A stretch of 64,000 bases of DNA from contig CAZPVP010000003.1 of the NCBI GenBank assembly GCA_964590345.1, positions 3,634 to 67,633 on the forward strand, in the 5' to 3' direction. Origin of the DNA: an uncultured Gammaproteobacteria bacterium (lineage in GTDB: Bacteria; Patescibacteriota; Patescibacteriia; CAIXNZ01). The notes below the pieces were generated by a model. It saw only the letters and a list, made by a program, of their open reading frames with translations, was not told the origin of the DNA and searched no databases. A program made the translations under genes and the position numbers. Of the stretch, positions 2,799 through 60,117 are shown in pieces. Position 1 is the stretch's first letter. Every line of letters starts with the position of its first letter.

Positions 2799-3254
2799 AT
2801 GATTTATTTAGGTGCGGATCACGGCGGGTTTAAATTAAAACAAGCGATTATACAATATTTAGCTAACTTAAATCTGGAATATAAGGATTTAGGCAATTTT
2901 AAATTAGAAAAAGATGATGATTATCCTGATTACGGTTATAAAGTTGCCAAAGCAGTGGCTAAAGATAAAAATTCAAAGGGAATTTTAATTTGTGGTTCCT
3001 CTTTTGGAGTATGTATTGTGGCTAATAAAGTTAAAGGCATAAGAGCGGTTTCTGTTAGCACAGTTAATGATGCTAAATTATCGCGTGAGCATAATCATGC
3101 CAATGTTTTGTGCTTATCTGGTTGGGATACTTCAGTTATAAAAGCCAAAAAAATTGTCAAAGCCTGGTTAAATACCAAATTTTCTAACAAGCCTCGTCAT
3201 CGTCGCAGATTGAATAAAATTAAACAAATTGAAAATAAGGATTTTAAAGACTGA
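2799..3254 (+). CDS. rpiB: ribose-5-phosphate isomerase B (RpiB/LacAB family)
   Basis: N-terminus MIYLGADHGGFKLK and the ILICGSSFGVCIVANK motif characteristic of RpiB. Confidence 0.9.
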   Translation: MIYLGADHGGFKLKQAIIQYLANLNLEYKDLGNFKLEKDDDYPDYGYKVAKAVAKDKNSKGILICGSSFGVCIVANKVKGIRAVSVSTVNDAKLSREHNHANVLCLSGWDTSVIKAKKIVKAWLNTKFSNKPRHRRRLNKIKQIENKDFKD

Positions 3255-3294
3255 AGTCTTAATTTCGGGAGCAGTAACACACTCCCATACATAT

Positions 3295-3948
3295 ATGAAT
3301 ATTCAAATTGTTCCAACACTTTTAACCCATTCTTTAGCTGAATTTAAATCGAAATTAAAAAAACTTGAGCCTTATTTTGCATTAATCCAAATCGACTGTG
3401 CTGATGGGAAATTTGTGAAAAATAAAACTTTTTACGATATCAATAAGATTAAAAAAATCAGAACCAAAGTCAATTACGAGCTGCATTTAATGGTTAAAGA
3501 ACCATTAAAAGAGATTAAAAAATGGGAGAATTTTAAAAAAGTTAAAAAAATTATTTTTCATTATGAAGCATTAAAAAGTGATCAGCAAGTTTTGGAACTA
3601 ATTGAATATTTGAAAAAAATAAAAATTAAAGCTGGTTTGGCTGTTAATCCGGAAACAAAAGTTGAAAAGGTTAAAAAATTTATTCCCAAATTGGATTTGA
3701 TTTTATTTTTAGGTGTCAAACCTGGTTGGGGAGGACAAAAATTTCAGCCCAGAATTTTAAATAAAATTCGCAAAGTTAGAAAATTATATCCAAAACTTGA
3801 TATTGAAGTTGATGGGGGAGTTAATTTAAAAAATGCTAAACAAATTATTAAAGCGGGTGCAAATATTTTGGCGGCTGGCAGTTTATTTATTAAATCAGAA
3901 TATATTAGGCAAACAATTACTCAAATAAAGAATAAATTTAAAAAATAA
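3295..3948 (+). CDS. rpe: ribulose-phosphate 3-epimerase
   Basis: TIM-barrel Rpe pattern (IQIVPTLLTHS, IQIDCADGKFV, LHLMV, DIEVDGGVN). I moved the start to the in-frame ATG at 3295 because the track start at 3229 overlaps rpiB. Confidence 0.8.
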   Translation: MNIQIVPTLLTHSLAEFKSKLKKLEPYFALIQIDCADGKFVKNKTFYDINKIKKIRTKVNYELHLMVKEPLKEIKKWENFKKVKKIIFHYEALKSDQQVLELIEYLKKIKIKAGLAVNPETKVEKVKKFIPKLDLILFLGVKPGWGGQKFQPRILNKIRKVRKLYPKLDIEVDGGVNLKNAKQIIKAGANILAAGSLFIKSEYIRQTITQIKNKFKK

Positions 3949-3958
3949 CTTAAGCTTT

Positions 3959-4171
3959 ATGAAAAATGTAAATTACAATCTGATTAAGATGCTTCATAAC
4001 ACACTCGATGACTTGTGGCGTTTGGAAAATTTTTACATTAAAGATGCCAAAAAAATGAAATGTAAGGGCTGTCAGGCGGTTTATGAGCAAATGCGCGTAG
4101 AGTTGAAGAAGCACATTAATTTACTACGAGATGAGTTAGCTGATCATATCGAAAAAGGTAAATTTAAATAA
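3959..4171 (+). CDS. small hypothetical protein (70 aa) with a single CKGC motif
   Basis: ORF only. Confidence 0.3.
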   Translation: MKNVNYNLIKMLHNTLDDLWRLENFYIKDAKKMKCKGCQAVYEQMRVELKKHINLLRDELADHIEKGKFK

Positions 4172-4180
4172 TTAAATTTT

Positions 4181-4609
4181 ATGATTAATAAAAAAATATA
4201 TCGTTGTTCAGTCTGTGGCTATATTTATCGTGATAAAAATGCTCCGTGTGAGTGTCCTTTTTGCCATAATAAAGGTGTTTTTGAAGAAATACCCGAAGAT
4301 AAAATTAATTTTGAATTTTTTAAAGATGCTTGGACAAAACAGGTTAATTGGATGAACTCAACCAAATATCAGGATGAGATTATGTTAAATCCCGACGAAA
4401 AGATTTTAAAAGATTTAGCTGAGACTATGGGGAAATATTTAAAAGATAACAAACAAGCTTATTGTCCTTGTCGTCTTTTATCGGGGGATAAAGAAGCCGA
4501 TCGCAAAATAATTTGCCCTTGTTATTTGTATATGGGTGAAATTGAGACGCAAGGAAAATGCCATTGTTCGCTTTATTTGGTAAAAAATAAAAAGAAGTCT
4601 GAGATTTGA
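4181..4609 (+). CDS. rubredoxin-like domain fused to a ferredoxin:thioredoxin reductase catalytic-subunit-like (FTR-C) domain
   Basis: N-terminal CSVCG..CECPFC (rubredoxin-type CxxC/CPxC knuckles). C-terminal CPCR...CPC...CHC, the FTR catalytic-subunit signature. Confidence 0.6.
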   Translation: MINKKIYRCSVCGYIYRDKNAPCECPFCHNKGVFEEIPEDKINFEFFKDAWTKQVNWMNSTKYQDEIMLNPDEKILKDLAETMGKYLKDNKQAYCPCRLLSGDKEADRKIICPCYLYMGEIETQGKCHCSLYLVKNKKKSEI

Positions 4610-4619
4610 GATCTGATTT

Positions 4620-5444
4620 ATGAAATATAATTTAAAAAAACTTAAGAAAACAGCTAATTTTTTACGCCAGGACGTGATTAAAATGCTGGCAGAAGCTGGT
4701 TCTGGCCATTCAGCCGGATCCTTGGGCTTGGCTGATATTTTCGCGGCTTTATATTTTAATATTTTAAATCATAAGCCGAAAAAGCCGAATTGGCCAAATC
4801 GTGATCGCTTGATTTTATCCTGTGGCCATATTGCGCCAATTCGTTATGCTGCCATGGCTAGAAGCGGTTACTTTCCAGTTAAAGAACTCAAAACTTTACG
4901 TAAATTAGGTTCACGTTTACAAGGCCATCCTTCAATGGCTGATTTGCCTGGTTTAGAAAATTCCTCTGGGCCTTTGGGACAGGGAGTTTCAGTGGCTGTG
5001 GGCAAGGCTTTAGCAGCGAAAATGAACCGCAAAAAATATTTTGTTTATTGCATAACTAGTGACGGCGAGCAGGATGAGGGCCAGACTTGGGAGGCAGTTA
5101 TGGCAGCGGCCAAATATAAACTTAATAATTTAATTTTTATTTTAGACAGAAATCAAATTCAAATTGATGGTTATACACAAGATATTATGCCATTGGAATT
5201 TTTGAAAACCAAATACGAGGCATTTAATTGGTTTGCAATGGAAACTGACGGCAATGATATTGAAAAAGTAATTAAATCATTGGAAATCGTTAAGCGGGGA
5301 AAGGATCGGCCAAAAATTATAATAGCTAGAACCGTGCCAGGAAAAGGAGTTAGTTTTATGGAAAACCGATGGGAATGGCATGGCCGGACGCCTTCTAAAA
5401 ATGAGGCAGAAAAGGCTTTAGCGGAATTACAAAAGGCGCTTTAA
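4620..5444 (+). CDS. transketolase, N-terminal (thiamine-diphosphate-binding) subunit of a split enzyme
   Basis: GHSAGSLGLADIF, ILSCGH and GDGEQDEG motifs. Followed immediately by the C-terminal subunit gene. Confidence 0.9.
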   Translation: MKYNLKKLKKTANFLRQDVIKMLAEAGSGHSAGSLGLADIFAALYFNILNHKPKKPNWPNRDRLILSCGHIAPIRYAAMARSGYFPVKELKTLRKLGSRLQGHPSMADLPGLENSSGPLGQGVSVAVGKALAAKMNRKKYFVYCITSDGEQDEGQTWEAVMAAAKYKLNNLIFILDRNQIQIDGYTQDIMPLEFLKTKYEAFNWFAMETDGNDIEKVIKSLEIVKRGKDRPKIIIARTVPGKGVSFMENRWEWHGRTPSKNEAEKALAELQKAL

Positions 5445-5445
5445 A

Positions 5446-6429
5446 ATGACAAATAACAAATATCAAATGACAAATATCAAAATTCAAATAAAAAAACAAT
5501 CTCTATTAAAAGCCTGTCGTGACGGTTTTGGCGAGGCGCTTTTAGAATTAGGCAAAAGGAATAAAAATGTGGTTGCTGTTTCTGCTGATTTGGCTGAATC
5601 AACGCGCTGTTTAGATTTTAGTAAAAAATATCCGGAACGTTTTGTTGAAGTCGGTGTAGCTGAACAAAATATGGCCGGGGTAGCAGCTGGATTGGCTTTG
5701 GAAGGCAAAATACCATTCACGTGTTCATTTGCTGTTTTTTCTCCGGGCCGAAATTGGGAACAGATTCGGATTTCAATTTGTTATAATAAAGCTAATGTAA
5801 AAATAGTTAGTTCGCATGCTGGTTTAAATGTGGGGGAAGACGGCGCAACTCATCAGGCCTTGGAAGATATTGCCTTAATGAGAGTTTTACCTAATATGAC
5901 AGTGATTGCGCCTTGTGATTATTTAGAAACTAAAAAAGCGGTTTTGGCAGTTGCTAAGATTAAGGTTCCGGTCTATATCCGTTTCGGCCGGGAAAAAACT
6001 CCTGTTTTTACAGAGCCAAGAAAATCTTTTAAAATCGGCAAGGCTGAAATTTTTAAAGAAGGTCAGGATGTGACAATAATTGCTTGCGGACCAATGGTTT
6101 ATGAGGCATTGTTGGCAGCTAAGGAATTAAAAAAAGAAAAAATAGATGCAGAAGTCATAAATTGCCATACCATTAAGCCTATTGATGCCAAGACAATTAT
6201 TCGTTCGGTTAAAAAAACAAATCGGGTAGTGACAATTGAAGAACACCAGGTTAACGGGGGATTAGGCAGTGCCATAGCAGAAATTTTAGGCCAAAATTAT
6301 CCCGCCCCTATAAAAATAATCGGTATGCCAGATAAATTTGGCGAGTCGGGAAAAGCACAGCAGCTTTTAGATAAATATAATTTAACTGCTGATAATATAG
6401 CTGATCAATGTTATAAATTAATGAAATAA
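5446..6429 (+). CDS. transketolase, C-terminal (pyrimidine-binding plus C-terminal domain) subunit
   Basis: EVGVAEQNMAGVAAGLA and HAGLNVGEDGATHQ motifs. One-base gap after the N-terminal subunit gene. Confidence 0.9.
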   Translation: MTNNKYQMTNIKIQIKKQSLLKACRDGFGEALLELGKRNKNVVAVSADLAESTRCLDFSKKYPERFVEVGVAEQNMAGVAAGLALEGKIPFTCSFAVFSPGRNWEQIRISICYNKANVKIVSSHAGLNVGEDGATHQALEDIALMRVLPNMTVIAPCDYLETKKAVLAVAKIKVPVYIRFGREKTPVFTEPRKSFKIGKAEIFKEGQDVTIIACGPMVYEALLAAKELKKEKIDAEVINCHTIKPIDAKTIIRSVKKTNRVVTIEEHQVNGGLGSAIAEILGQNYPAPIKIIGMPDKFGESGKAQQLLDKYNLTADNIADQCYKLMK

Positions 6430-6431
6430 AT

Positions 6432-7346
6432 ATGGAAAAACCAAAACAACTATACATTTTACCATTTGATCACCGCTCAACTTTCAGGCGCGGTTTATTC
6501 GGCTGGAAAGAACCGATTAATAAATCGCAAGTTCAAAAAATAAAAGATACAAAAAAAATGATTTGGCAGGCCTTTTTAAAGGTTCATCTAAAAAGTCATT
6601 TCAAAGAATATCTCGGTATTTTAATTGACGAGCAGTTTGGGTCGGAGATATTAAGAGAAGCCAAGAAGTTGGGTGTAATCACTATTTTGACTACGGAAAA
6701 AAGCGGAGAAAAAGTTTTTGATTTTGAGTATGGAAAAGATTTTGGCAAGCATATTTTAAAATTTAAGCCGGATTATGCTAAAGTATTGGTTCGTTATAAT
6801 CCAAGCAATAAAAAACACAATTTGGTTCAATTGAAAAGACTTAAAAAGATAAATAATTTTTGCCAGAAAAACAAAATTGGTTTTTTGTTTGAATTATTGG
6901 TGCCGGCAACTGATGAGCAATTGAGAGTTTATAAAGATAAGTTTACTTATGACAAGAAAGCCAGGCCCAATTTAACCAAAACAGCGATTAAGGAAATTCG
7001 CGCATTTGGTATTGAGCCTGACATTTGGAAATTAGAGGCCATGGATAAAAAATTTGATTGGCCAATGATTATTAAGGAAATCAAGAAGAATAATAAAAAA
7101 AATTTTAAAATAATTGTTTTGGGCAGAGCCGCTCCTAAACCGGTCGTTAAATATTGGTTAAAAACCGCTGTTAATTTTGAAGAAATTTTCGGTTTTGCAA
7201 TCGGTAGGACGATATTTTTCGCGCCTTTGAAAAAATATCGCGATAAAAAAATTACAAAAAGAAAAGCAATAGACCTGATTGGCAAGAATTTTCAATTTTT
7301 CATTAAGTTTTGGCAAAAACAAAAGATTGGTAAAAAATATTATTAA
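6432..7346 (+). CDS. DUF2090-like TIM-barrel protein (putative class I aldolase-like), partner of the following PfkB kinase
   Basis: The N-terminal YILPFDHRSTFRR pattern resembles the DUF2090 domain found fused or adjacent to IolC-type sugar kinases. Tentative. Confidence 0.35.
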   Translation: MEKPKQLYILPFDHRSTFRRGLFGWKEPINKSQVQKIKDTKKMIWQAFLKVHLKSHFKEYLGILIDEQFGSEILREAKKLGVITILTTEKSGEKVFDFEYGKDFGKHILKFKPDYAKVLVRYNPSNKKHNLVQLKRLKKINNFCQKNKIGFLFELLVPATDEQLRVYKDKFTYDKKARPNLTKTAIKEIRAFGIEPDIWKLEAMDKKFDWPMIIKEIKKNNKKNFKIIVLGRAAPKPVVKYWLKTAVNFEEIFGFAIGRTIFFAPLKKYRDKKITKRKAIDLIGKNFQFFIKFWQKQKIGKKYY

Positions 7347-7360
7347 TTAAAATATTTAAT

Positions 7361-8335
7361 ATGTATGACATTATTACAATTGGTTCAGCGACAAAAGACG
7401 TGTTTTTGCTTTCTAAAAATTTTAAATTAATTAAATCTGATAAATTTAGGGGAGGTGTCGGTGAATGTTTCGCTTATGGTGCAAAAATTGAATTAGGGGA
7501 TATTTATTTTGATACTGGCGGAGGCGCAACAAATACAGCTTATACATTTTCTAATTTAGGTTTAAATCCATCGATAGTATCCAGAATTGGTAATGATATT
7601 TATGGCATAGAAATTTTGACAGTTTTGGCTGATAAAGGCATTGATATAAGTAATTTAACAGTTGATAAAAAGCACAAGACTGCTTATTCAACAATTTTAA
7701 TTACCCCTGAAGGTGATCGAACAATTTTAGTCTACAGAGGCGCTAGCGCTAATTTTTCAGCTAAGGATTTTAATTTCGCTAAATTGAAAACCAAATGGTT
7801 TTATATATCATCTTTGGCTGGCAATATAGAGTTATTAAAAAAAATTTTTTCTTTTGCCAAAAAAAATAAAATCAAAATTGCCTGGAATCCAGGCAGCGGT
7901 GAATTAAAATTAGGCAAAAGCAAGTTGGCGCCATTAATTAAGCAAACGACAATTTTTAATGTTAATAAAGAAGAAGCCGCTAAATTATCTGGCAGAAAAG
8001 AGATAAAGCAAATTTATAAAGTTTTAGACAATTTGACCCCGAATTATTTGGTTATAACCGATGGAGACAAAGGCGCATATTTGTCTGATGATATGCTGAT
8101 TTACCATGCCAAGGCTCTTGGTTCAAAGCCAGTCAATACAACTGGAGCAGGCGATGCATTTGGTTCGGCTTTTTGCGCTGGTTTGATTTTAAAGAATGAT
8201 TGGGATTTTGCTTTGCGTTTGGCAATTTTAAATTCTGACGGGGTGATTAAGGAAATGGGCGCCAAAAATGGCCTTTTACCAAAAATACCAAAACAAAAAA
8301 AATTAGATAAAGTTAAAATAACTATTTTAAAATGA
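7361..8335 (+). CDS. PfkB-family carbohydrate/nucleoside kinase (ribokinase-like)
   Basis: N-terminal GG motif (DTGGGATNTA) and C-terminal GAGDAFGSAF anion-hole motif. Confidence 0.8.
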   Translation: MYDIITIGSATKDVFLLSKNFKLIKSDKFRGGVGECFAYGAKIELGDIYFDTGGGATNTAYTFSNLGLNPSIVSRIGNDIYGIEILTVLADKGIDISNLTVDKKHKTAYSTILITPEGDRTILVYRGASANFSAKDFNFAKLKTKWFYISSLAGNIELLKKIFSFAKKNKIKIAWNPGSGELKLGKSKLAPLIKQTTIFNVNKEEAAKLSGRKEIKQIYKVLDNLTPNYLVITDGDKGAYLSDDMLIYHAKALGSKPVNTTGAGDAFGSAFCAGLILKNDWDFALRLAILNSDGVIKEMGAKNGLLPKIPKQKKLDKVKITILK

Positions 8336-46990: not shown

Positions 46991-47929
46991 ATGAGAGAAA
47001 AATTATCTTACGAAAAACCAAAAGTTGAAAAAATTGAAAAAAAAGATTATGTTTTTGATGAATTTCACAAAGCAGATTTTAAAATTGAAGAATTCCCGGA
47101 AATTTTTGAGCGAGCTGTAGAGCTTGCCAATATGCCTGATTCGCACTTTGATGACGGTGTAAAAATGTCTCAAATTATTGAGACTTTATGGCAAGATATT
47201 AAAAAGGAAGGAGAAATTAATTTTACGATTGAGGAATTAAAATTAGCTTGTTTATTTCATGATATTGGCAAATCTGGCCCTCCTGAAGCAAGCAGAGGAG
47301 AAAGATTTACGATGGAACAGATTTTTAACCCGGTTTATTTTAATGTCAATCGGCCGGAATTTAAAGGCAAAAATCCTAAAGAGTTATCAATTTCCGAAGC
47401 TTTGGATATTGAGGATTTTCCCAACAAAGAAACAATTGAAGAATATTTGAAAACTTTAACTTTGCACGTTTTTGATGAAAAGAATAAAAAAATCAAAGAA
47501 GAAAAATTAGATTTAGAAAAGCATTCAATGATTGATCTTTGGCGGGAACATGATTATTGGACTTATCAATTGTTGCAAAAATATGGCGATGATAAAATTT
47601 CTCGCGATTTAATAGTTGTTTCAAGTTCTCATCATACTTTGGAAGGCCATGACCCGGCCATGATTGACGGCGAAATACCTAATGAGGCAGTAACTTTAGA
47701 AATTTTGGATAAATATTTAATTTTGACTTTGGTTGATAAATATCAGGCGTTTACAGACCGGACTGGCAAAGATCATGAGGAAACCATAAAAATTTTAGAA
47801 AATATGATAAATGCAAGCAAAAAAGAGGGGATTATTAATCATGATGATACTGTTTTTAATCAGTTTATAAAATATTTAAAAATTTTAGAAAAACATCCGG
47901 AAATGGCAGAGATTATTAAAAAGAAATAA
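46991..47929 (+). CDS. HD-domain phosphohydrolase
   Basis: LFHDIGK motif (the H..HD..K HD-domain signature). Confidence 0.6.
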   Translation: MREKLSYEKPKVEKIEKKDYVFDEFHKADFKIEEFPEIFERAVELANMPDSHFDDGVKMSQIIETLWQDIKKEGEINFTIEELKLACLFHDIGKSGPPEASRGERFTMEQIFNPVYFNVNRPEFKGKNPKELSISEALDIEDFPNKETIEEYLKTLTLHVFDEKNKKIKEEKLDLEKHSMIDLWREHDYWTYQLLQKYGDDKISRDLIVVSSSHHTLEGHDPAMIDGEIPNEAVTLEILDKYLILTLVDKYQAFTDRTGKDHEETIKILENMINASKKEGIINHDDTVFNQFIKYLKILEKHPEMAEIIKKK

Positions 47930-47944
47930 GTTTTTAAAAATAGA

Positions 47945-47971
47945 AAAAGAGGGGAGTAAGCCCCTCTTTTT
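47945..47971. terminator. bidirectional terminator AAAAAGAGGGGagtaagCCCCTCTTTTT between convergent genes
   Basis: Read directly. Confidence 0.6.
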
Positions 47972-47987: not shown

Positions 47988-49436
47988 CTACATTTGACCC
48001 GTCCAGCAATAAGTGCAGACCCTTTCTGGCGGCAGGCCAATAGCTTTAATATTATGAGCAGTTGTCAGGTAAATTATCCTTTTGACAACTTCCCAGTCAG
48101 ATTCCTTATTGACATCGCGCCTTATCCATTCAATCATTGCTTTGAATTTTTCTGTTCTTGGATCAAGATAAGGGGTAATGTCAATTTCTTCAATTTTTTT
48201 GCCTTCAATCCCTACCATAGCTTTTCTGGCTGCTAATTCTTCCAATCTTCTAGTTGATTCTTCAAATGGGCAGATTTCAATTAAAGGCGCACAAGCTAAA
48301 GCCAGGGTTAGGTCTGATGGACGGCAACGTCCGATTTTTTTTATTAGCCAAAATAGTTGAGTATTTCGTACCAGAGAATCGTCAATGAGCAGAATTTTTT
48401 TGCCGGCTATAACTGCTCTGATAGTGTTGATTTTGTGAAAAGCCGCGTAGTTTCGTTGACGCTGACTTCCATACATGAAACTACGAATACTGCGTTTTTT
48501 TCTTAGAGGTCTTTTTAAAGGTAAGCCTGAAGCACAAGCTGCCCCATGAGCATGGCCTAATCCTGAATCTGGAACCCCGGCGATAAAGTCAATTTCCAAA
48601 CCCATGGGTTCAAAGATGTCCCAAATGGCAGCACCGCTTCTGTCACGGGTATCTTCAACGCAGATATTTTCAATAATTGCTTCAGGATAAGCAGTATATA
48701 CGTATAAAAAACCGCATATTTTGCTATTATCATGCCCCGGTACAAGCGTTTTTGGCCCGTTACCGTCAATGAAAACAATTTCGCCGGCTTTGAGTTCTCT
48801 TTCTCTTTCATATTCAAGATTATCTAGGCCTGTTGTTTCAGTAACAACTGCATAGGTACTATTTTTTTGACTAATTGATAAGCTGAACGTTCCGCGTGGA
48901 TCTCTGGCTGCAAAAATACCATCAGCGGTTAAGAGTAGCATATTAAGTGAGCCATGCCCCTTAATTTTCTCCCAAACTGCTTTTATGCCATCCACCAGAT
49001 CTTTGCCTGTGCTGATTATTTCACCTGCGATTTCGGCTTTGTTATAGTGCCAGTTTTCTTTTTTTTCATCCCATGTTTTTTCCTGAAAATTATGGCCTTG
49101 ATCTTTTAATTCGTCACCAATTTGCTGTAAATTAAAAAAATTTCCTTGAACAGCAATACTGAAGCTGCCAATTCTGGTGTCAAATTTTAAAGGCTGAACA
49201 TCGGCGGAACTGGCAACTCCAATTCCGATATTGCCGGGAAGTCTGTCTAATTCCTTGGCAAATCTTGGCAAAAAAGGAATTTCACTTATGGCGTGAATTT
49301 CTTTATAGAGGCCATTGCCCTGACGAGTGAAAATTCCGCCAATAGCTTGTCCTAGATGTTCATGATCGCTTAATAGATTGTAGAGATCTTCTATGCAAGG
49401 TTCTTTTACTGAAAAGACTCCTGACAAACCGCTCAT
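47988..49436 (-). CDS. amidophosphoribosyltransferase (PurF)-like protein with Ntn glutaminase domain and PRT domain; catalytic Cys1 replaced by Ser (MSGLSG)
   Basis: N-terminus MSGLSGVFS parallels PurF MCGIVGI. GNIGIG. PRT motif ILLIDDSLVRNT. C-terminal Cys cluster CTYCW. Good SD (GGAGGG) 6 nt before the ATG. Codon 2 is AGC (Ser). Confidence 0.75.
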   Translation of the reverse strand: MSGLSGVFSVKEPCIEDLYNLLSDHEHLGQAIGGIFTRQGNGLYKEIHAISEIPFLPRFAKELDRLPGNIGIGVASSADVQPLKFDTRIGSFSIAVQGNFFNLQQIGDELKDQGHNFQEKTWDEKKENWHYNKAEIAGEIISTGKDLVDGIKAVWEKIKGHGSLNMLLLTADGIFAARDPRGTFSLSISQKNSTYAVVTETTGLDNLEYERERELKAGEIVFIDGNGPKTLVPGHDNSKICGFLYVYTAYPEAIIENICVEDTRDRSGAAIWDIFEPMGLEIDFIAGVPDSGLGHAHGAACASGLPLKRPLRKKRSIRSFMYGSQRQRNYAAFHKINTIRAVIAGKKILLIDDSLVRNTQLFWLIKKIGRCRPSDLTLALACAPLIEICPFEESTRRLEELAARKAMVGIEGKKIEEIDITPYLDPRTEKFKAMIEWIRRDVNKESDWEVVKRIIYLTTAHNIKAIGLPPERVCTYCWTGQM

Positions 49437-49626
49437 TTTTTCCCTCCTCTGTTTTTAGAATTTTTAATGAACCAATTTAATATTTTCAGCTTACAAAATC
49501 TTGGCAAAATTGTCAATTTTTGCTAAACTTTATTTATAGATTTAAGAGGTAAGATTTAAGATGTAAGTAAAAATGAGTTAAAAATAGCTTAAATCTTAGT
49601 CCTTAAACCTTAAATTTATTAAAAAT

Positions 49627-54124: not shown

Positions 54125-55258
54125 TTATTGTATTCTTCTTATGCATTTAGGCTTACCACTAGCTGTCCAATTATGTCCAGAAAAATTAGTTACTCTTATA
54201 GCATTCCCCGGTGACCTACCAGAATGACCGCCATGACTTTCAAAAAGTTTCCCCCCACCAGCATAAATGTAAACATGTCCTATGCCATGTCCACAGCCAG
54301 TTGGGTAACCAACAACATCGCCTGCTTTTAATCCAATACCATTAACAGAGGTTGCTCCAAAATTCTCAATTCTTTCGCTATTACTGCAATTACAACCAAA
54401 AATACTAGTGGTACCACCGCCATAAGAGCTTATACCGGCGCATCTTAAAACAAAATTAATATAACCCGAACAATCTAAGCAAACAGTTCCGCTTGGGCAG
54501 AAATTATTATATTGCATATATTGTGATCTTATTTCGCTATATGGAGGTGGGCCGCCTTTGCCGCCGAATCTATAAGTGACTTTTCCGACGGTAGCTCTTG
54601 TAATTTGTTCCATAACGGAAGCCCCTCCATTTTTAGGGCAAAAGATAGCGCCAGGGACATATCTTTCCCAATTACCAAAAAGAGGTGCATCTATATCTGG
54701 TGATTCAATCTCCTCAACATAAGCAACTTGAGGCGTTTCTAATTGAGTCAAGCCAATAAAAGATAATATTATATAACTAAGCACACCAATAATTAGACCA
54801 ATGAAAGCAGAAGAAATGTATTTTTTGGCGGTTTTAATTTGGGCTACATTACCGCCAGCTAAAATCCATTTAACTCCTCCAAAAATAACCATTACGATTG
54901 CAATTGGCACTAATATATATAAGGCGTATTTATAAATATTTTTAATATAGTCCGCAATATTAACAGCCTTTTCGTATTTAAAAATTGGCACTTGTAGGTC
55001 AAGATCGATTTGGGCGCCGTATTTATGGCAGCATTTGCCAACATCACAAACTGCTTCAGAATCTAAAAATTCGCCTTCAGGGCATTCTTCAGTTTCAACA
55101 CAATGGCCATCATCAGGATATTTGTCTTCGCAGCTTAGTTGCTCTATTACATCATCGGTCGCATTGGCAAGATTAACTAAAAGAAAAGAAAGACTTATAA
55201 ATAACAGAATTAAGCTTAATTTAATTAAAAAGTTGAAGGTTATTTTTTTGTCTTTCAT
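54125..55258 (-). CDS. NlpC/P60-family cell-wall hydrolase with an N-terminal signal peptide, a Cys-rich module and a VirB2/TrbC-like two-helix hydrophobic hairpin
   Basis: Catalytic Cys context LDCSGYINFVL and His GHVYIYAGGGKLFESHGG. Cys-rich CEDKYPDDGHCVETEECPEGEF..CDVGKCC. Hydrophobic hairpin ALYILVPIAIVMVIFGGVKWILAGGNVAQIKTAKKYISSAFIGLIIGVLSYIIL. Confidence 0.6.
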   Translation of the reverse strand: MKDKKITFNFLIKLSLILLFISLSFLLVNLANATDDVIEQLSCEDKYPDDGHCVETEECPEGEFLDSEAVCDVGKCCHKYGAQIDLDLQVPIFKYEKAVNIADYIKNIYKYALYILVPIAIVMVIFGGVKWILAGGNVAQIKTAKKYISSAFIGLIIGVLSYIILSFIGLTQLETPQVAYVEEIESPDIDAPLFGNWERYVPGAIFCPKNGGASVMEQITRATVGKVTYRFGGKGGPPPYSEIRSQYMQYNNFCPSGTVCLDCSGYINFVLRCAGISSYGGGTTSIFGCNCSNSERIENFGATSVNGIGLKAGDVVGYPTGCGHGIGHVYIYAGGGKLFESHGGHSGRSPGNAIRVTNFSGHNWTASGKPKCIRRIQ

Positions 55259-55683
55259 TTTCGAATTTTATTGTGAAAAATATTTTTTAAAACATTAGCC
55301 AAGAAAAAGAAAATAAGGGCTTGGAGCAAATCATAAACGTTAATCCCTTTTGCACTTATAAAACCAATGATTAAAATAAAAATTGTGCCTAAATAAATAA
55401 CCGTGTCAATTAAATAAAATTCAAATCCTGTAACAATTATTTCATATTGAGTGATGCCTTGTTCTTTATCTTTTTTAAATCTAAATTTGTGTTTGGTTAA
55501 AGTTAGAATTAAGGCAAAAATTAAAATAATTACGGGGCCCCAGAAAATTAAAATTTTTCCCAATGTTTCAGTCAGGTCAGGGAAAAACCACCACATAATT
55601 ACAACTCCAATAATAATTAGCCAAACTATATACTTAGAAAAAAGATTTAAAATTATTGCTTTAAATTTTTCTAAACTAGTCAT
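55255..55683 (-). CDS. integral membrane protein (4 TM), unknown function
   Basis: Hydrophobicity. Operonic with the flanking hydrolase genes. Confidence 0.45.
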   Translation of the reverse strand: MTSLEKFKAIILNLFSKYIVWLIIIGVVIMWWFFPDLTETLGKILIFWGPVIILIFALILTLTKHKFRFKKDKEQGITQYEIIVTGFEFYLIDTVIYLGTIFILIIGFISAKGINVYDLLQALIFFFLANVLKNIFHNKIRK

Positions 55684-55716
55684 ATTTTTTTAGTATAAGT
55701 GTAAGATGAATATTTT

Positions 55717-56952
55717 TTATGGCAGATACTCTAAAGGGTTAACAGGAATACCATTTAATCTAACTTCAAAGTGCAAATGCGGACCAGTGGATAATCTGCC
55801 TGCGCCTAAAGTCCCGGGCATGCCTCCTGTTAAGCCGATAACATCGCCTGCTTTTACATAAGTATCAGGTTTAACATAAATGGCGCTAACATGGCCATAA
55901 ACCGTGGAAATGCCATTATCATGGATTAAAATAATGTAACTATAGCCATAACCGGCATCTTTGGCTCTGGCAACATAACCATTAGCTGGTGCTTTGATTT
56001 GACTTCCCTGCTGGGCCCTGAGATCAATAGCTGGATGTTCAAAAATATAGCGATAAGGATAATCAGGGTCATGAAAATAAGCAGTAATTATATGCGGTGG
56101 TGGTGATGGCCAGGAAACTAAAGTAGTTTTTGGTGAAGAAGAGCCGCTTCTAATTCGGGCAACTTTATTTTTAAGCTGTTCTTGTAAATTTAAGACATCA
56201 CTGTCAATTTCATTTTGCCTTTGCTTTGCTTCTACTAAAAGTTTTTGGAATTGGATTTCAGATGATTTGGTCTCTAAAAGCAGGACTTCTTTGGCTTTTT
56301 GTTCATCTTTAAGTTTGGCTTCTTGGGCTTCTAAGGTTAATTGTAATTGCTCTAATTCTTGTTTTTGCCTTTCTTTGTCAACTTTTTGAACTTCGATAGC
56401 TTCTTTTAAAAGTTTTAGACGATCAACAGTATTTTTAATATTAGCTTGTATTTCTTCCAAATAGCTAAGTTGGCTAAAAAAATCAGCAAAAGAATCATTT
56501 AAAATTAAAATTTCTAAATAAGATTTTTGATCATTTTGATGAATTAATTTAATGTATTCCATTAAATTTTCTTTTTGTCGGTCAATTTCATTTTTTTCTT
56601 TAGCAATCTGATAATCCATAGATTCAAGCTCTAACTTTGTTTTATCAACTTGTAGTTGAGTTGTTTTAATATCTAATTCTATTTTTAAAATTTGATTATC
56701 CAGAAGTCCTATTTGGTTTTTCAAAGTAGCTGATTTGGCTTTATATTCTTCAACTTTTTGGGCATATTCTTCAGCAGCTTTTTTTAAATTCTCAATTTTA
56801 TTTTTGCTATCCTCTATTTGTTCGTTAATATCCTGGATTTCAGGGGTATTAGCGTATAAATTATAATCATTTTTTTGAGCAATAACAAAACTGGAGCTTA
56901 AAATCAATAAACTCAAAATTACAAGAAAAGCTAATTTATTTTTCTTTTTCAT
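55717..56952 (-). CDS. M23-family metallopeptidase with long N-terminal coiled coil (EnvC-like)
   Basis: Signal peptide, heptad-rich region, and M23 motifs HPAIDLRA...GYGYSYIILIHDNGISTVYGH...GPHLHFEV. Confidence 0.85.
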   Translation of the reverse strand: MKKKNKLAFLVILSLLILSSSFVIAQKNDYNLYANTPEIQDINEQIEDSKNKIENLKKAAEEYAQKVEEYKAKSATLKNQIGLLDNQILKIELDIKTTQLQVDKTKLELESMDYQIAKEKNEIDRQKENLMEYIKLIHQNDQKSYLEILILNDSFADFFSQLSYLEEIQANIKNTVDRLKLLKEAIEVQKVDKERQKQELEQLQLTLEAQEAKLKDEQKAKEVLLLETKSSEIQFQKLLVEAKQRQNEIDSDVLNLQEQLKNKVARIRSGSSSPKTTLVSWPSPPPHIITAYFHDPDYPYRYIFEHPAIDLRAQQGSQIKAPANGYVARAKDAGYGYSYIILIHDNGISTVYGHVSAIYVKPDTYVKAGDVIGLTGGMPGTLGAGRLSTGPHLHFEVRLNGIPVNPLEYLP

Positions 56953-58935: not shown

Positions 58936-60117
58936 TTATAAGTATTTTTTAAATCCATCTAAGCCAATCTTTATAAGCGGTTTTTTAAAATCCGGAACTT
59001 TATCTAAAATTTTATCTTTGTTTATCCATTGCCATTCAATGAATTCATTGGGATCCAATTTTATCTCATCGTCATTGCCTTGGAATTTCAGCAGAAAAAG
59101 CGATTGGATTTGTCCTTTGAAACGATCCCAGCCTTGATCGGGTTTTGTCCAAGTATATTTGTGGCAATTGGGCAGCCAATCTAAAATTTTTACATTATCG
59201 GTGCCGATTTCTTGCCTTAATTCCCTTAGTATATCCTTTTCATATTCCTGCTTTGTTTTTGCATTTTTAGCACCGCCTTGAGGTAGCTGCCAATAATTTC
59301 TGGTCGCATGTTTGGCGATTAAAATTTTTTTATCCTGATTAATAATAAAACCCGCTACATTTTTTCTGTAAAAAAACGAATTGCCAATACGAAATTTGAT
59401 GCAGACTAATGGAAATATTATAACAGCATTAAAAATTCTTTTCCAACGTTTTGGCTCTTGCAATAAACGCCAAAGCCATTCTATGCCTAATTCCCGCCAA
59501 AATTCCGGCGCTCTTTTTAGCCGGCCGGCAATAAAATCCAAGCTTCCGCCAATGCCTAACATCAATTTTGTCTCTAATTTGTCAATATTATTATTAATAA
59601 AATATTCTTGCTTCGGACAACCAAAATTGACTAATATGATATTGGGCTGAAATTCGTTTATTTGTGAAATTAAATTTTGGTTTTCAAAATTTCCCTTGTT
59701 ATCAACTTTGCCGGGATCAAGGTAGTTTATTTTTAATTCAGGATGTTTTTGCCCGATCATTTTTAGCGCACGTTCCCCTATTTTGGGTTGACCTTCAAAA
59801 AATAATATTGAGTAATTATTTTGTTCAGCCAATATAAGCAGTTGCCAGCAAAGATCAACGCCTGTTGTTAAGTTATGTAATTTTTTGCCAAAAAATAATG
59901 CTCCGATTTTTAAACCAAAACCGTCAGGGATTGAGATAAAAGATTTTTTTATGATTCTTCTAAGAAATTTGTCTTTATAGGCTTTTAAGCAAATTTCAGG
60001 ATTTGGTGTGACAATAAATCCTTTGTTTTGGCTTTTTAATAAATTTTGGATTTCTTGAATAGTTTCATCAAGCGAGATATCATTAATTTTTGTTCCTAAA
60101 ATAAATAATTTGCGCAT
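58936..60117 (-). CDS. fusion of a WecB/TagA/CpsF-family (GT26) glycosyltransferase and a C-terminal NUDIX hydrolase
   Basis: GT26 pattern (VTPNPE...FISIPDGFGL...ILVNFGCPKQE...GIGGSLDFIAG). Nudix box GGAKNAKTKQEYEKDILRELRQEIG. Confidence 0.7.
   Translation of the reverse strand: MRKLFILGTKINDISLDETIQEIQNLLKSQNKGFIVTPNPEICLKAYKDKFLRRIIKKSFISIPDGFGLKIGALFFGKKLHNLTTGVDLCWQLLILAEQNNYSILFFEGQPKIGERALKMIGQKHPELKINYLDPGKVDNKGNFENQNLISQINEFQPNIILVNFGCPKQEYFINNNIDKLETKLMLGIGGSLDFIAGRLKRAPEFWRELGIEWLWRLLQEPKRWKRIFNAVIIFPLVCIKFRIGNSFFYRKNVAGFIINQDKKILIAKHATRNYWQLPQGGAKNAKTKQEYEKDILRELRQEIGTDNVKILDWLPNCHKYTWTKPDQGWDRFKGQIQSLFLLKFQGNDDEIKLDPNEFIEWQWINKDKILDKVPDFKKPLIKIGLDGFKKYL

Follow-up and report, generated by a model that had tools for sequence, protein, structure and literature searches.

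Results

A PurF-like gene with serine at the nucleophile position

We identified a gene for a PurF-like protein of 482 amino acids (aa), with the N-terminus MSGLSGVFS, on the minus strand of a 64,000-nucleotide stretch of contig CAZPVP010000003.1 (assembly GCA_964590345.1); the whole of this stretch is called the window below. The contig comes from an uncultured bacterium of the Candidate Phyla Radiation (CPR; Patescibacteria). The protein has an N-terminal domain with the N-terminal nucleophile (Ntn) fold (residues ~1-235), followed by a type I phosphoribosyltransferase (PRTase) domain and a C-terminal Fe-S segment (together residues ~236-482). Serine occupies the position of Cys1, the nucleophile of canonical PurF, and we refer to the protein and its Cys-less relatives as PurF′, a name introduced for archaeal proteins of similar description. 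The features discussed are collected in Table 1.

Table 1. Features of the PurF′ locus and of the rest of the window (coordinates are window positions)
Feature	Coordinates	Strand	Basis or remark
Coding sequence of the Cys-less PurF paralogue (PurF′-type)	47988..49436	-	Open reading frame (ORF), homology, AlphaFold2 model
ATG and codon 2, AGC (Ser)	49431..49436	-	Position of the canonical Cys1 nucleophile; codon 2 is 49431-49433
Shine-Dalgarno sequence GAGGAGGG	49442..49449	-	5 nt before the ATG
Promoter-like TTGCCA-17-AATATT	49479..49507	-	Consensus match only; in the 190-bp divergent spacer common to serS
Intrinsic terminator hairpin	47944..47971	-	11-bp stem between A and T runs; common to the convergent HD-domain gene
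Loop binding 5-phosphoribosyl-1-pyrophosphate (PRPP), D352-D353-S354-L-V-R357-N358-T359-Q360	48359..48385	-	Alignment; B. subtilis D345 D346 S347 I V R350 G351 T352 T353
PRTase flexible loop, K313...R318 S319...Q325..R328......K335	48434..48502	-	Alignment; B. subtilis K305, R311, T312, Q318, R321, K328
Convergent 312-aa HD-domain protein	46991..47929	+	Adjoins PurF′ in all more distant CPR loci
Sugar-phosphate cluster: rpiB, ribulose-phosphate 3-epimerase, rubredoxin-like/FeThRed_B fusion, split transketolase (N and C halves), DUF2090, PfkB kinase	2799-8335	+	
Type IV secretion system (T4SS)-pilin-domain proteins fused to NlpC/P60, M23 peptidase, TrwB/TraG-like coupling protein with treble-clef zinc finger	54125-56952; 737-2743	-; +	
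WecG/TagA-type glycosyltransferase and NUDIX hydrolase domain fused	58936-60117	-	393-aa ORF
Run of large ORFs, 346-1158 aa	21082-37906	+	Mostly without a Pfam match; a few with fn3, Big or Laminin_G_3

An earlier interpretation of this locus, made from the letters of the DNA and referred to here as the sequence-only reading, had pointed to serine in place of Cys1 and to a Shine-Dalgarno sequence supporting the ATG. Both points are confirmed, the first by the ORF and by conservation of the residue in more than 160 homologues. The in-frame codons 5′ of the gene are TAA AAA CAG AGG AGG GAA AAA ATG, with a stop seven codons upstream, so that a longer N-terminus or a hidden upstream Cys is impossible. 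AGGAGG sites also precede the PurF′ orthologues of four other CPR loci (L006, L088, L089 and L091). The serine is kept in all ~30 close relatives and in most homologues from Omnitrophota and Planctomycetota, encoded by AGC in some and by TCA in others (both Ser codon families), and because of this conservation it is not a base-calling error. The possibility of a sequencing error at codon 2, raised in the sequence-only reading, has therefore been discarded along with that of a wrong start, given the upstream stop, the Shine-Dalgarno site and the two codon families.

The gene is a well-conserved single-gene unit, as it has its own terminator and is separated from serS by a divergent spacer of 190 bp. 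Its GC content is 40.4%, against a window mean of 33.3% (standard deviation 4.0). We considered this as a sign of recent transfer into the CPR genome and dropped the idea, since the GC content of mreB is even higher. A comparison of nonsynonymous and synonymous substitution rates (dN/dS) between the gene and its CPR orthologues yielded no ratio because dS was saturated.

Homology and fold

A phmmer search against the PDB matched the protein over its whole length to the PurF proteins of A. thaliana and B. subtilis (E = 9e-35 to 4e-34). An AlphaFold2 model, for which a 35-sequence family alignment was the input, had a mean predicted local distance difference test (pLDDT) score of 94.5 and a predicted template modelling (pTM) score of 0.91. 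In a Foldseek search with this model, the top 17 matches were all PurF, with TM scores of 0.81/0.86 and 25% identity to the B. subtilis structure 1ao0. The full-length alignment with PurF reported in the sequence-only reading is upheld by both searches, and the motifs it named are present: GNIGIG, ILLIDDSLVRNT (residues 348-359) and a C-terminal CxxC (C474, C477). As modelled, the window protein has the two-domain fold of PurF, an Ntn amidotransferase joined to a type I PRTase.

The glutaminase half

We compared the residues of 54 family representatives with those of 44 canonical PurF representatives, using E. coli numbering for the glutamine site. Cys1 was found in 44 of the 44 canonical proteins, whereas the family had Ser in 27, Gly in 14 and Ala in 3 (Ser2 in the window protein). 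Arg26 of the LQHRGQ motif, likewise canonical in 44/44, was replaced by Leu in 42 family members, including the window protein (Leu28). The HVRYxTxG loop with Arg73 and Tyr74, present in canonical PurF, was deleted in all 54, as an eight-residue deletion in the window protein. The oxyanion residue Asn101 (37/44 canonical) was variable in the family (V10, Q9, D8, A6 and others; Gln97 in the window protein), as was Asp127 (38/44 canonical; Lys133 in the window protein). The conserved Gly102 was kept in the family, and its counterpart Gly98 is the only glutamine-site residue that the window protein retains among Arg26, Arg73, Tyr74, Asn101, Gly102 and Asp127. When the comparison was widened to ~287 full-length family members, the Cys1 position held Ser in 165, Gly in 83 (~29%), Ala in 5, Thr in 5, Asp in 3 and Cys in 1, and with such variation a nucleophile is not a conserved feature of the family. 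Judged from these residues, the glutamine-hydrolysing site of the family is dismantled, and canonical use of glutamine is predicted to be impossible.

The annotation models agree with this separation. The only Pfam match to the window protein was GATase_7, below threshold, and NCBIfam TIGR01134, the PurF equivalog model, gave it 137.2 bits against a cutoff of 350. In the same comparison, the canonical PurF of an Omnitrophota locus (L001) scored 516 bits and other PurF′ proteins 203-229 bits. With Cys1 and the glutamine site gone and a score under the model cutoff, the window protein is outside the canonical PurF equivalog; it is a PurF relative misnamed by annotation rather than a mutant PurF. 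The sequence-only reading had described a Cys-to-Ser change in an otherwise ordinary PurF, a description that does not survive the loss of Arg26, the Arg73/Tyr74 loop, Asn101 and Asp127 or the score of 137 bits. True variants of that kind, with a single Cys-to-Ser change, do exist: three library proteins (P0193, P0218 and P0228) begin with MSG instead of MCG, yet keep LQHRGQ and the remaining motifs of the glutamine site and are otherwise canonical PurF. They resemble Mlab_0150 in this respect (Brown et al. 2011) and lie outside the PurF′ clade.

A serine might also serve as the nucleophile itself. In such an Ntn amidotransferase, Ser1 would replace Cys1, hydrolyse glutamine or another amide and feed ammonia to the PRTase site. 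The Met-Ser start should expose Ser1 once Met is removed, the residue is strictly kept in the CPR and Omnitrophota clades with both codon families, and Gly102 is conserved. We nevertheless consider this very improbable, as the position is Gly in 83 of the ~287 members and Ala or Asp in others, and four residues are missing: Arg73 and Asp127, which bind glutamine, Arg26 and the oxyanion Asn101. An E. coli C1S mutant, as reported in PMC3261824, is also without glutamine-dependent activity. The features of a Ser/Thr Ntn hydrolase are thus missing: the nucleophile position is unconserved, and the oxyanion-hole and substrate-binding residues are lost. The sequence-only reading had listed a Ser-Ntn variant, an ammonia-dependent enzyme and a repurposed enzyme as its options; the latter two are still live, whereas the frequency of Gly and the presence of Ala and Asp make the first unlikely.

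The phosphoribosyltransferase half and the Fe-S cysteines

The second half of the protein presents a different picture from the first. In the PRPP loop, D353 was found in 52 of the 54 family representatives, S354 in 54 and R357 in 52, and the pyrophosphate (VPDS/VPDSG) loop, aligned to that of B. subtilis, is retained as P289-D290-S291. The flexible-loop residues K313, R318, S319, Q325, R328 and K335 were kept in 48-53 of the 54 (K313, R328 and K335 in 53 each, R318 and S319 in 52 each). Four cysteines, C241, C389, C474 and C477, align with the Fe-S ligands C236, C382, C437 and C440 of B. subtilis PurF, and were found in 54, 53, 50 and 50 of the 54 representatives, respectively. To judge from the alignments, the type I phosphoribosyltransferase site seems complete, and the window protein carries the four ligand cysteines of a B. 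subtilis-type [4Fe-4S] cluster, the cluster itself being predicted. This level of conservation indicates that the PRPP site and the predicted Fe-S site of the family are under strong constraint. The family also has a distinctive C-terminal segment, ...IEG..YLDP.S..Y..MVEWIR...AIGLP...LCTYCWTG.

Distribution and phylogeny

A search of 5.8 billion proteins returned ~25 close relatives with 71-81% identity to the window protein and five with 50-55% identity, four of which are CPR by their locus DNA. Hundreds more, from groups such as Omnitrophota and Planctomycetota, had 37-42% identity, and almost every match starts with Met-Ser-Gly. We assessed the breadth of the family with two scans, one of 1.84 billion cluster representatives by HMMER and one of 185,579 species genomes, and the latter placed the Cys-less clade in at least 600 species genomes. 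Among the matches listed, the bacterial carriers include CPR, Omnitrophota, Elusimicrobiota, Planctomycetota, Desulfobacterota-type 'delta' lineages, Gemmatimonadota, Bacteroidales, Lachnospiraceae, Treponema and Fibrobacteraceae, and the archaeal carriers are metagenome-assembled genomes (MAGs) of Thermoplasmatota, Altiarchaeota, Methanobacteriota and Hermodarchaeota. In a neighbour-joining tree of 118 representatives, the Cys-less proteins formed one clade apart from the Cys-bearing PurFs, and separate hidden Markov models assigned 323 sequences to the Cys-less family and 66 to canonical PurF. The window gene is one member of an old and very widespread paralogue clade and no oddity of the CPR.

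Within the CPR, the history of the gene differs from that of its neighbours. The PurF′ proteins of L088, L089 and L091 are 50-55% identical to the window protein, against 61-78% for the neighbouring housekeeping genes. By its SerRS (77%), LysRS (78%) and GreA (in the range 76-78%), the window organism is nearest to L091, yet its PurF′ is only ~50% identical to that of L091. With L006, the identity is 77% for PurF′, though only 62% for SerRS. These discordant values point to in-situ replacement or to strong rate differences among lineages.

The greater divergence of PurF′ than of its neighbours in L088, L089 and L091 could also mean relaxed constraint in some CPR lineages, as would be expected of a purF decaying into a pseudogene after loss of the pathway. 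For the window gene, such a relic, like the artefact of a misread codon 2, is effectively refuted and retains next to no probability: the ORF is intact with its Shine-Dalgarno site and terminator, the model is confident, the ~25 relatives at 71-81% identity keep all of the PRTase and Fe-S residues, and the same serine recurs in hundreds of homologues.

Purine genes beside PurF′ outside the CPR

We clustered 449 neighbour proteins from ~69 family loci. The most recurrent neighbours were canonical PurF (seven loci) and PurM (five), with PurL and PurB in four loci each and PurQ and PurD in three each; small clade-specific syntenies came after these. A family of ~514 aa lies within one to three genes of PurF′ in four unrelated loci, L011, L022, L025 and L068 (Omnitrophota, Pirellulales and Fibrobacteraceae), and an ABC ATPase-like family lies near it in L060, L083, L086 and L087. 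These two are the only families other than pur genes to reach four loci, and we dropped non-pur neighbours as a clue to another pathway, pur genes being the most frequent recurrent families.

Adjacency to canonical purF spans Omnitrophota, Planctomycetota, Bacillota, Bacteroides and one Asgard archaeon (7 of the ~69 loci, and in addition L097, described below). The gene order is purQ-purF-purF′-purM in two Omnitrophota loci (L001 and L031), purF-purM-purF′ in two of Planctomycetota (L012 and L021) and purF′-purF in a Bacteroides MAG (L064), and the two genes also lie side by side in a Hermodarchaeota MAG (L047). In two further Omnitrophota loci, L013 and L019, PurF′ fills the slot held by purF in L001, and the operon has no canonical purF. 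The order in L019 is purQ-purF′-purM, while L013 has one unassigned ORF after purL, with the paralogue before purM.

When metagenomes were scanned with the window protein, six loci at 71-75% identity were recovered, and every one of them lies on a contig of 53-60% GC. The most informative of the 71-75% group is L097 (contig Ga0315274_10000204, 90.5 kb, 58% GC), which is not CPR, given its GC content and its neighbouring genes (OmpA/PD40, a ROK kinase, an MFS transporter and a DinG-like helicase). At L097:6846-11455 the order is purB, canonical purF, a 350-bp spacer and a PurF′ gene whose product shares 73% identity with the window protein. The canonical PurF is of the Cys and Fe-S type, with EECGVVGI, LQHRGQ, IGHVRYSTAG, LAHNGN, SSDTE and DDSIVRGTT. 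Besides L097, loci L092-L096 and L098-L102 place this group on high-GC, non-CPR contigs. In a neighbour-joining tree, the 484-aa proteins of the high-GC group nest inside the 482-aa CPR group, which suggests horizontal transfer of PurF′ between CPR and free-living bacteria, in either direction. Given their similarity, the window protein and the L097 protein beside purB and purF almost certainly have a biochemical function in common. The suggestion of the sequence-only reading that the enzyme was repurposed in an organism salvaging purines is weakened by this orthologue and by the frequency of pur genes among recurrent neighbours, though it is still a live option.

The adjacency to purF, which is also seen in the archaeal PurF/PurF′ pairs, might reflect a non-catalytic or regulatory partnership. 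PurF is an obligate oligomer, and a PurF′ with a dead glutaminase site could join it in a hetero-oligomer and modulate its activity, feedback inhibition or stability. We think this quite unlikely: the catalytic and PRPP-binding residues of the PRTase half are nearly invariant, which is unusual for a pseudoenzyme, PurF′ operons without purF exist (L013 and L019), and no purF lies near PurF′ in the CPR loci.

The CPR loci and the rest of the window

In the window and in L006, L088, L089 and L091, PurF′ lies between a divergent serS and the convergent HD-domain gene. Beyond this pair come lysS, greA, the gene for penicillin-binding protein 2 (PBP2) and mreBCD, with lysS and greA gone in L089; the names GreA, LysRS and PBP2 come from the orthologues in L006, L088 and L091, these proteins falling outside the Pfam scan of the window. 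The HD-domain gene is the only neighbour that stays beside PurF′ in all of the CPR loci, L089 included, and its 312-aa product had no match in PDB or NCBIfam searches. No other purine gene was found in the window, as the sequence-only reading had stated: a tblastn search with PurB, PurL, PurQ, PurM, PurD and PurE had no match, and Pfam scans of 50 ORFs of at least 120 aa, together with the PurF′ ORF, showed none.

The Pfam-scanned content is otherwise typical of the CPR, with a T4SS coupling protein, pilin-hydrolase fusions, aminoacyl-tRNA synthetases, cell-wall genes and a non-oxidative pentose-phosphate cluster. The last of these shows that ribose-5-phosphate, the precursor of PRPP, can be made, and no prs was seen in the window. 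The CPR-typical pilin-hydrolase array is found upstream in L006, L088 and L091 as well. The run of large ORFs probably encodes surface proteins.

Riboswitches

As a clue to the ligand, we ran Rfam on the window, on the gene's 5′ region, on one Fibrobacteraceae locus, in which the published Fibro-purF/PRA motif (PMC7668255) was sought, and on 24 more loci (L001, L013, L019 and 21 with long upstream spacers). No match lay upstream of PurF′, and the clue was dropped. The matches were limited to tRNAs, one cspA element and cyclic di-GMP (c-di-GMP)-I riboswitches of other genes. Two of these riboswitches lie near PurF′ in Bacillota loci, at L080:11565-11652 (+) and L061:7181-7265 (-); the former is directly 3′ of the PurF′ stop and presumably controls the next gene. 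The paper that describes Fibro-purF does not state the type of PurF that the motif precedes.

Discussion

The best explanation we have for these observations, to which we give a probability of roughly 0.42, is that PurF′ is a glutaminase-dead, PRPP-using enzyme whose nucleophile would most likely be free ammonia and whose product would be 5-phosphoribosylamine. PRPP-Mg would be bound in the conserved type I PRTase site and closed in by the conserved flexible loop, and the phosphoribosyl group would be passed to a nitrogen nucleophile from a source other than glutamine hydrolysed by the same polypeptide. Free NH3, giving 5-phosphoribosylamine, would be the most economical choice. The N-terminal domain would be retained as a structural lid and partner of the PRTase flexible loop and no longer as a hydrolase, and its N-terminal Ser (Gly in other clades) would be kept for its small size and would not act as a nucleophile. 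Such an enzyme may open purine synthesis with a step that depends on ammonia, either alongside canonical PurF or in its place, in anaerobic habitats rich in ammonium. The associations with pur operons and the two cases in the purF slot (L013 and L019) support this reading. A precedent comes from E. coli PurF, in which replacement of Cys1 by Ser or Ala abolished glutamine-dependent activity and left NH3-dependent phosphoribosylamine synthesis in place (Mei & Zalkin 1989, as cited in PMC3261824).

Several observations weigh on the other side. Neither the window nor five CPR loci (~100 kb together) contain a pur gene, and 93% of Patescibacteria genomes are without de novo nucleotide synthesis (bioRxiv 10.64898/2026.06.21.733656). 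The CPR carriers probably lack the downstream purine pathway, and phosphoribosylamine is useless if PurD is absent. Rfam showed no purine, ZTP or PRPP riboswitch ahead of PurF′, either in the window or in any of 25 further family loci. Many genomes place PurF′ directly beside canonical PurF, itself NH3-capable, and the benefit of a second enzyme is not evident. A literature search found no characterised bacterial Cys-less PurF, only the archaeal description of 2011, and no paper describing the bacterial breadth of the Cys-less family. Two sets of family-specific residues also hint at a different or additional ligand. One is the change of Thr353 to Gln in the PRPP loop (Q360, in 52 of 54 representatives), and the other is a group of near-invariant residues in the N-domain (H27, H48, S76, Q81, N132 and E135), of which Asn132 is invariant and a signature of the family.

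Alternatively, PurF′ might be a new PRPP-dependent transferase in which the remodelled N-domain presents a larger nucleophile, such as an amine, an amino acid or a base, with a role in salvage or in another process apart from purine synthesis in the CPR. The Gln signature and the invariant N-domain residues would suit such an enzyme, as would the eight-residue deletion, which takes out the channel residue Tyr74. The gene also persists as a conserved unit of its own in CPR loci that contain no pur genes, in a group whose members mostly lack de novo synthesis, and ~85% of family loci are not beside pur genes. The context outside the CPR argues the other way: pur genes are the most frequent recurrent neighbours, the two unrelated families with four loci each suggest no alternative pathway, and no candidate partner enzyme or transporter recurs nearby. 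PurF′ also fills the purF slot in L013 and L019, and the 73% identical orthologue stands beside purB and purF. We see this as a possible explanation, though on the doubtful side. That the entire Cys-less clade, its gut Bacteroidales and Lachnospiraceae included, is a new Fe-S-containing, PRPP-dependent transferase with another nucleophile, and not a phosphoribosylamine synthase, seems unlikely. If there is such an activity, it would benefit even CPR that are unable to make purines, and its usefulness would have been great enough for exchange between CPR and free-living bacteria of high GC.

Metabolic reconstructions, those of the CPR/Patescibacteria included, use PurF as a marker of de novo purine synthesis. 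Pipelines label the Cys-less family 'amidophosphoribosyltransferase' although it falls below the cutoff of the curated PurF model, and counting PurF′ as PurF therefore inflates the inferred biosynthetic capacity. Proteins of the PurF′ type have been known since 2011, and the window protein is another member of that family and not a unique enzyme. The family is large and present in cultivable gut anaerobes, and the hypotheses it poses are NH3-dependent phosphoribosylamine synthesis, a partnership with PurF and new chemistry.

Comparison with known systems

Archaeal PurF′ proteins were described for Crenarchaeota and Mlab_0150 (Brown, Hoopes, White & Sarisky 2011, Biol Direct 6:63; PMC3261824). 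They are full-length and PurF-like, have Ala, Val or Ser in place of the N-terminal Cys, cluster apart from true PurF and are encoded near purF or other pur genes; their NH3 dependence was put forward there as a proposal only. The window family likewise consists of full-length PurF homologues without the N-terminal Cys that form a separate cluster. Proximity to pur genes, which belongs to the PurF′ definition, is found in 7 of the ~69 loci and in L097, and not in the window, L006, L088, L089 or L091. The window protein fits the PurF′ definition of Brown et al. (2011), the likeness being one of description. Unlike the crenarchaeal proteins as described, the present family occurs in at least 600 bacterial and archaeal species genomes, and the copy in the window has no pur neighbours. 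The E. coli Cys1 mutants resemble the window protein in lacking the Cys nucleophile while the PRTase half is intact, but they retain the remaining glutamine-site residues and those of the ammonia channel, unlike the window family.

B. subtilis PurF (PDB 1AO0/1GPH), of the Fe-S type, shares with the window protein the fold of Ntn and type I PRTase domains (TM 0.81-0.86), the four cluster cysteines, the DDS-x-VR-x-T PRPP loop, the VPDS loop and the Lys, Arg and Gln residues of the flexible loop. The window protein differs from it in being only 25% identical, in having Ser for Cys1 and no propeptide, in the change of Arg26 to Leu, in the deletion of the HVRY loop, in the loss of Asn101 and Asp127 and in its family-specific C-terminal segment.

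A similar fate of an amidotransferase domain is seen in β-lactam synthetase and carbapenam synthetase, homologues of AsnB with a vestigial class II amidotransferase domain. In these enzymes Cys1 and the glutaminase activity have been lost, the N-domain is structural, and the synthetase chemistry has been retained or re-purposed. Unlike PurF′, they pair the vestigial domain with an ATP-pyrophosphatase synthetase domain instead of a PRTase, and they have no Fe-S cluster.

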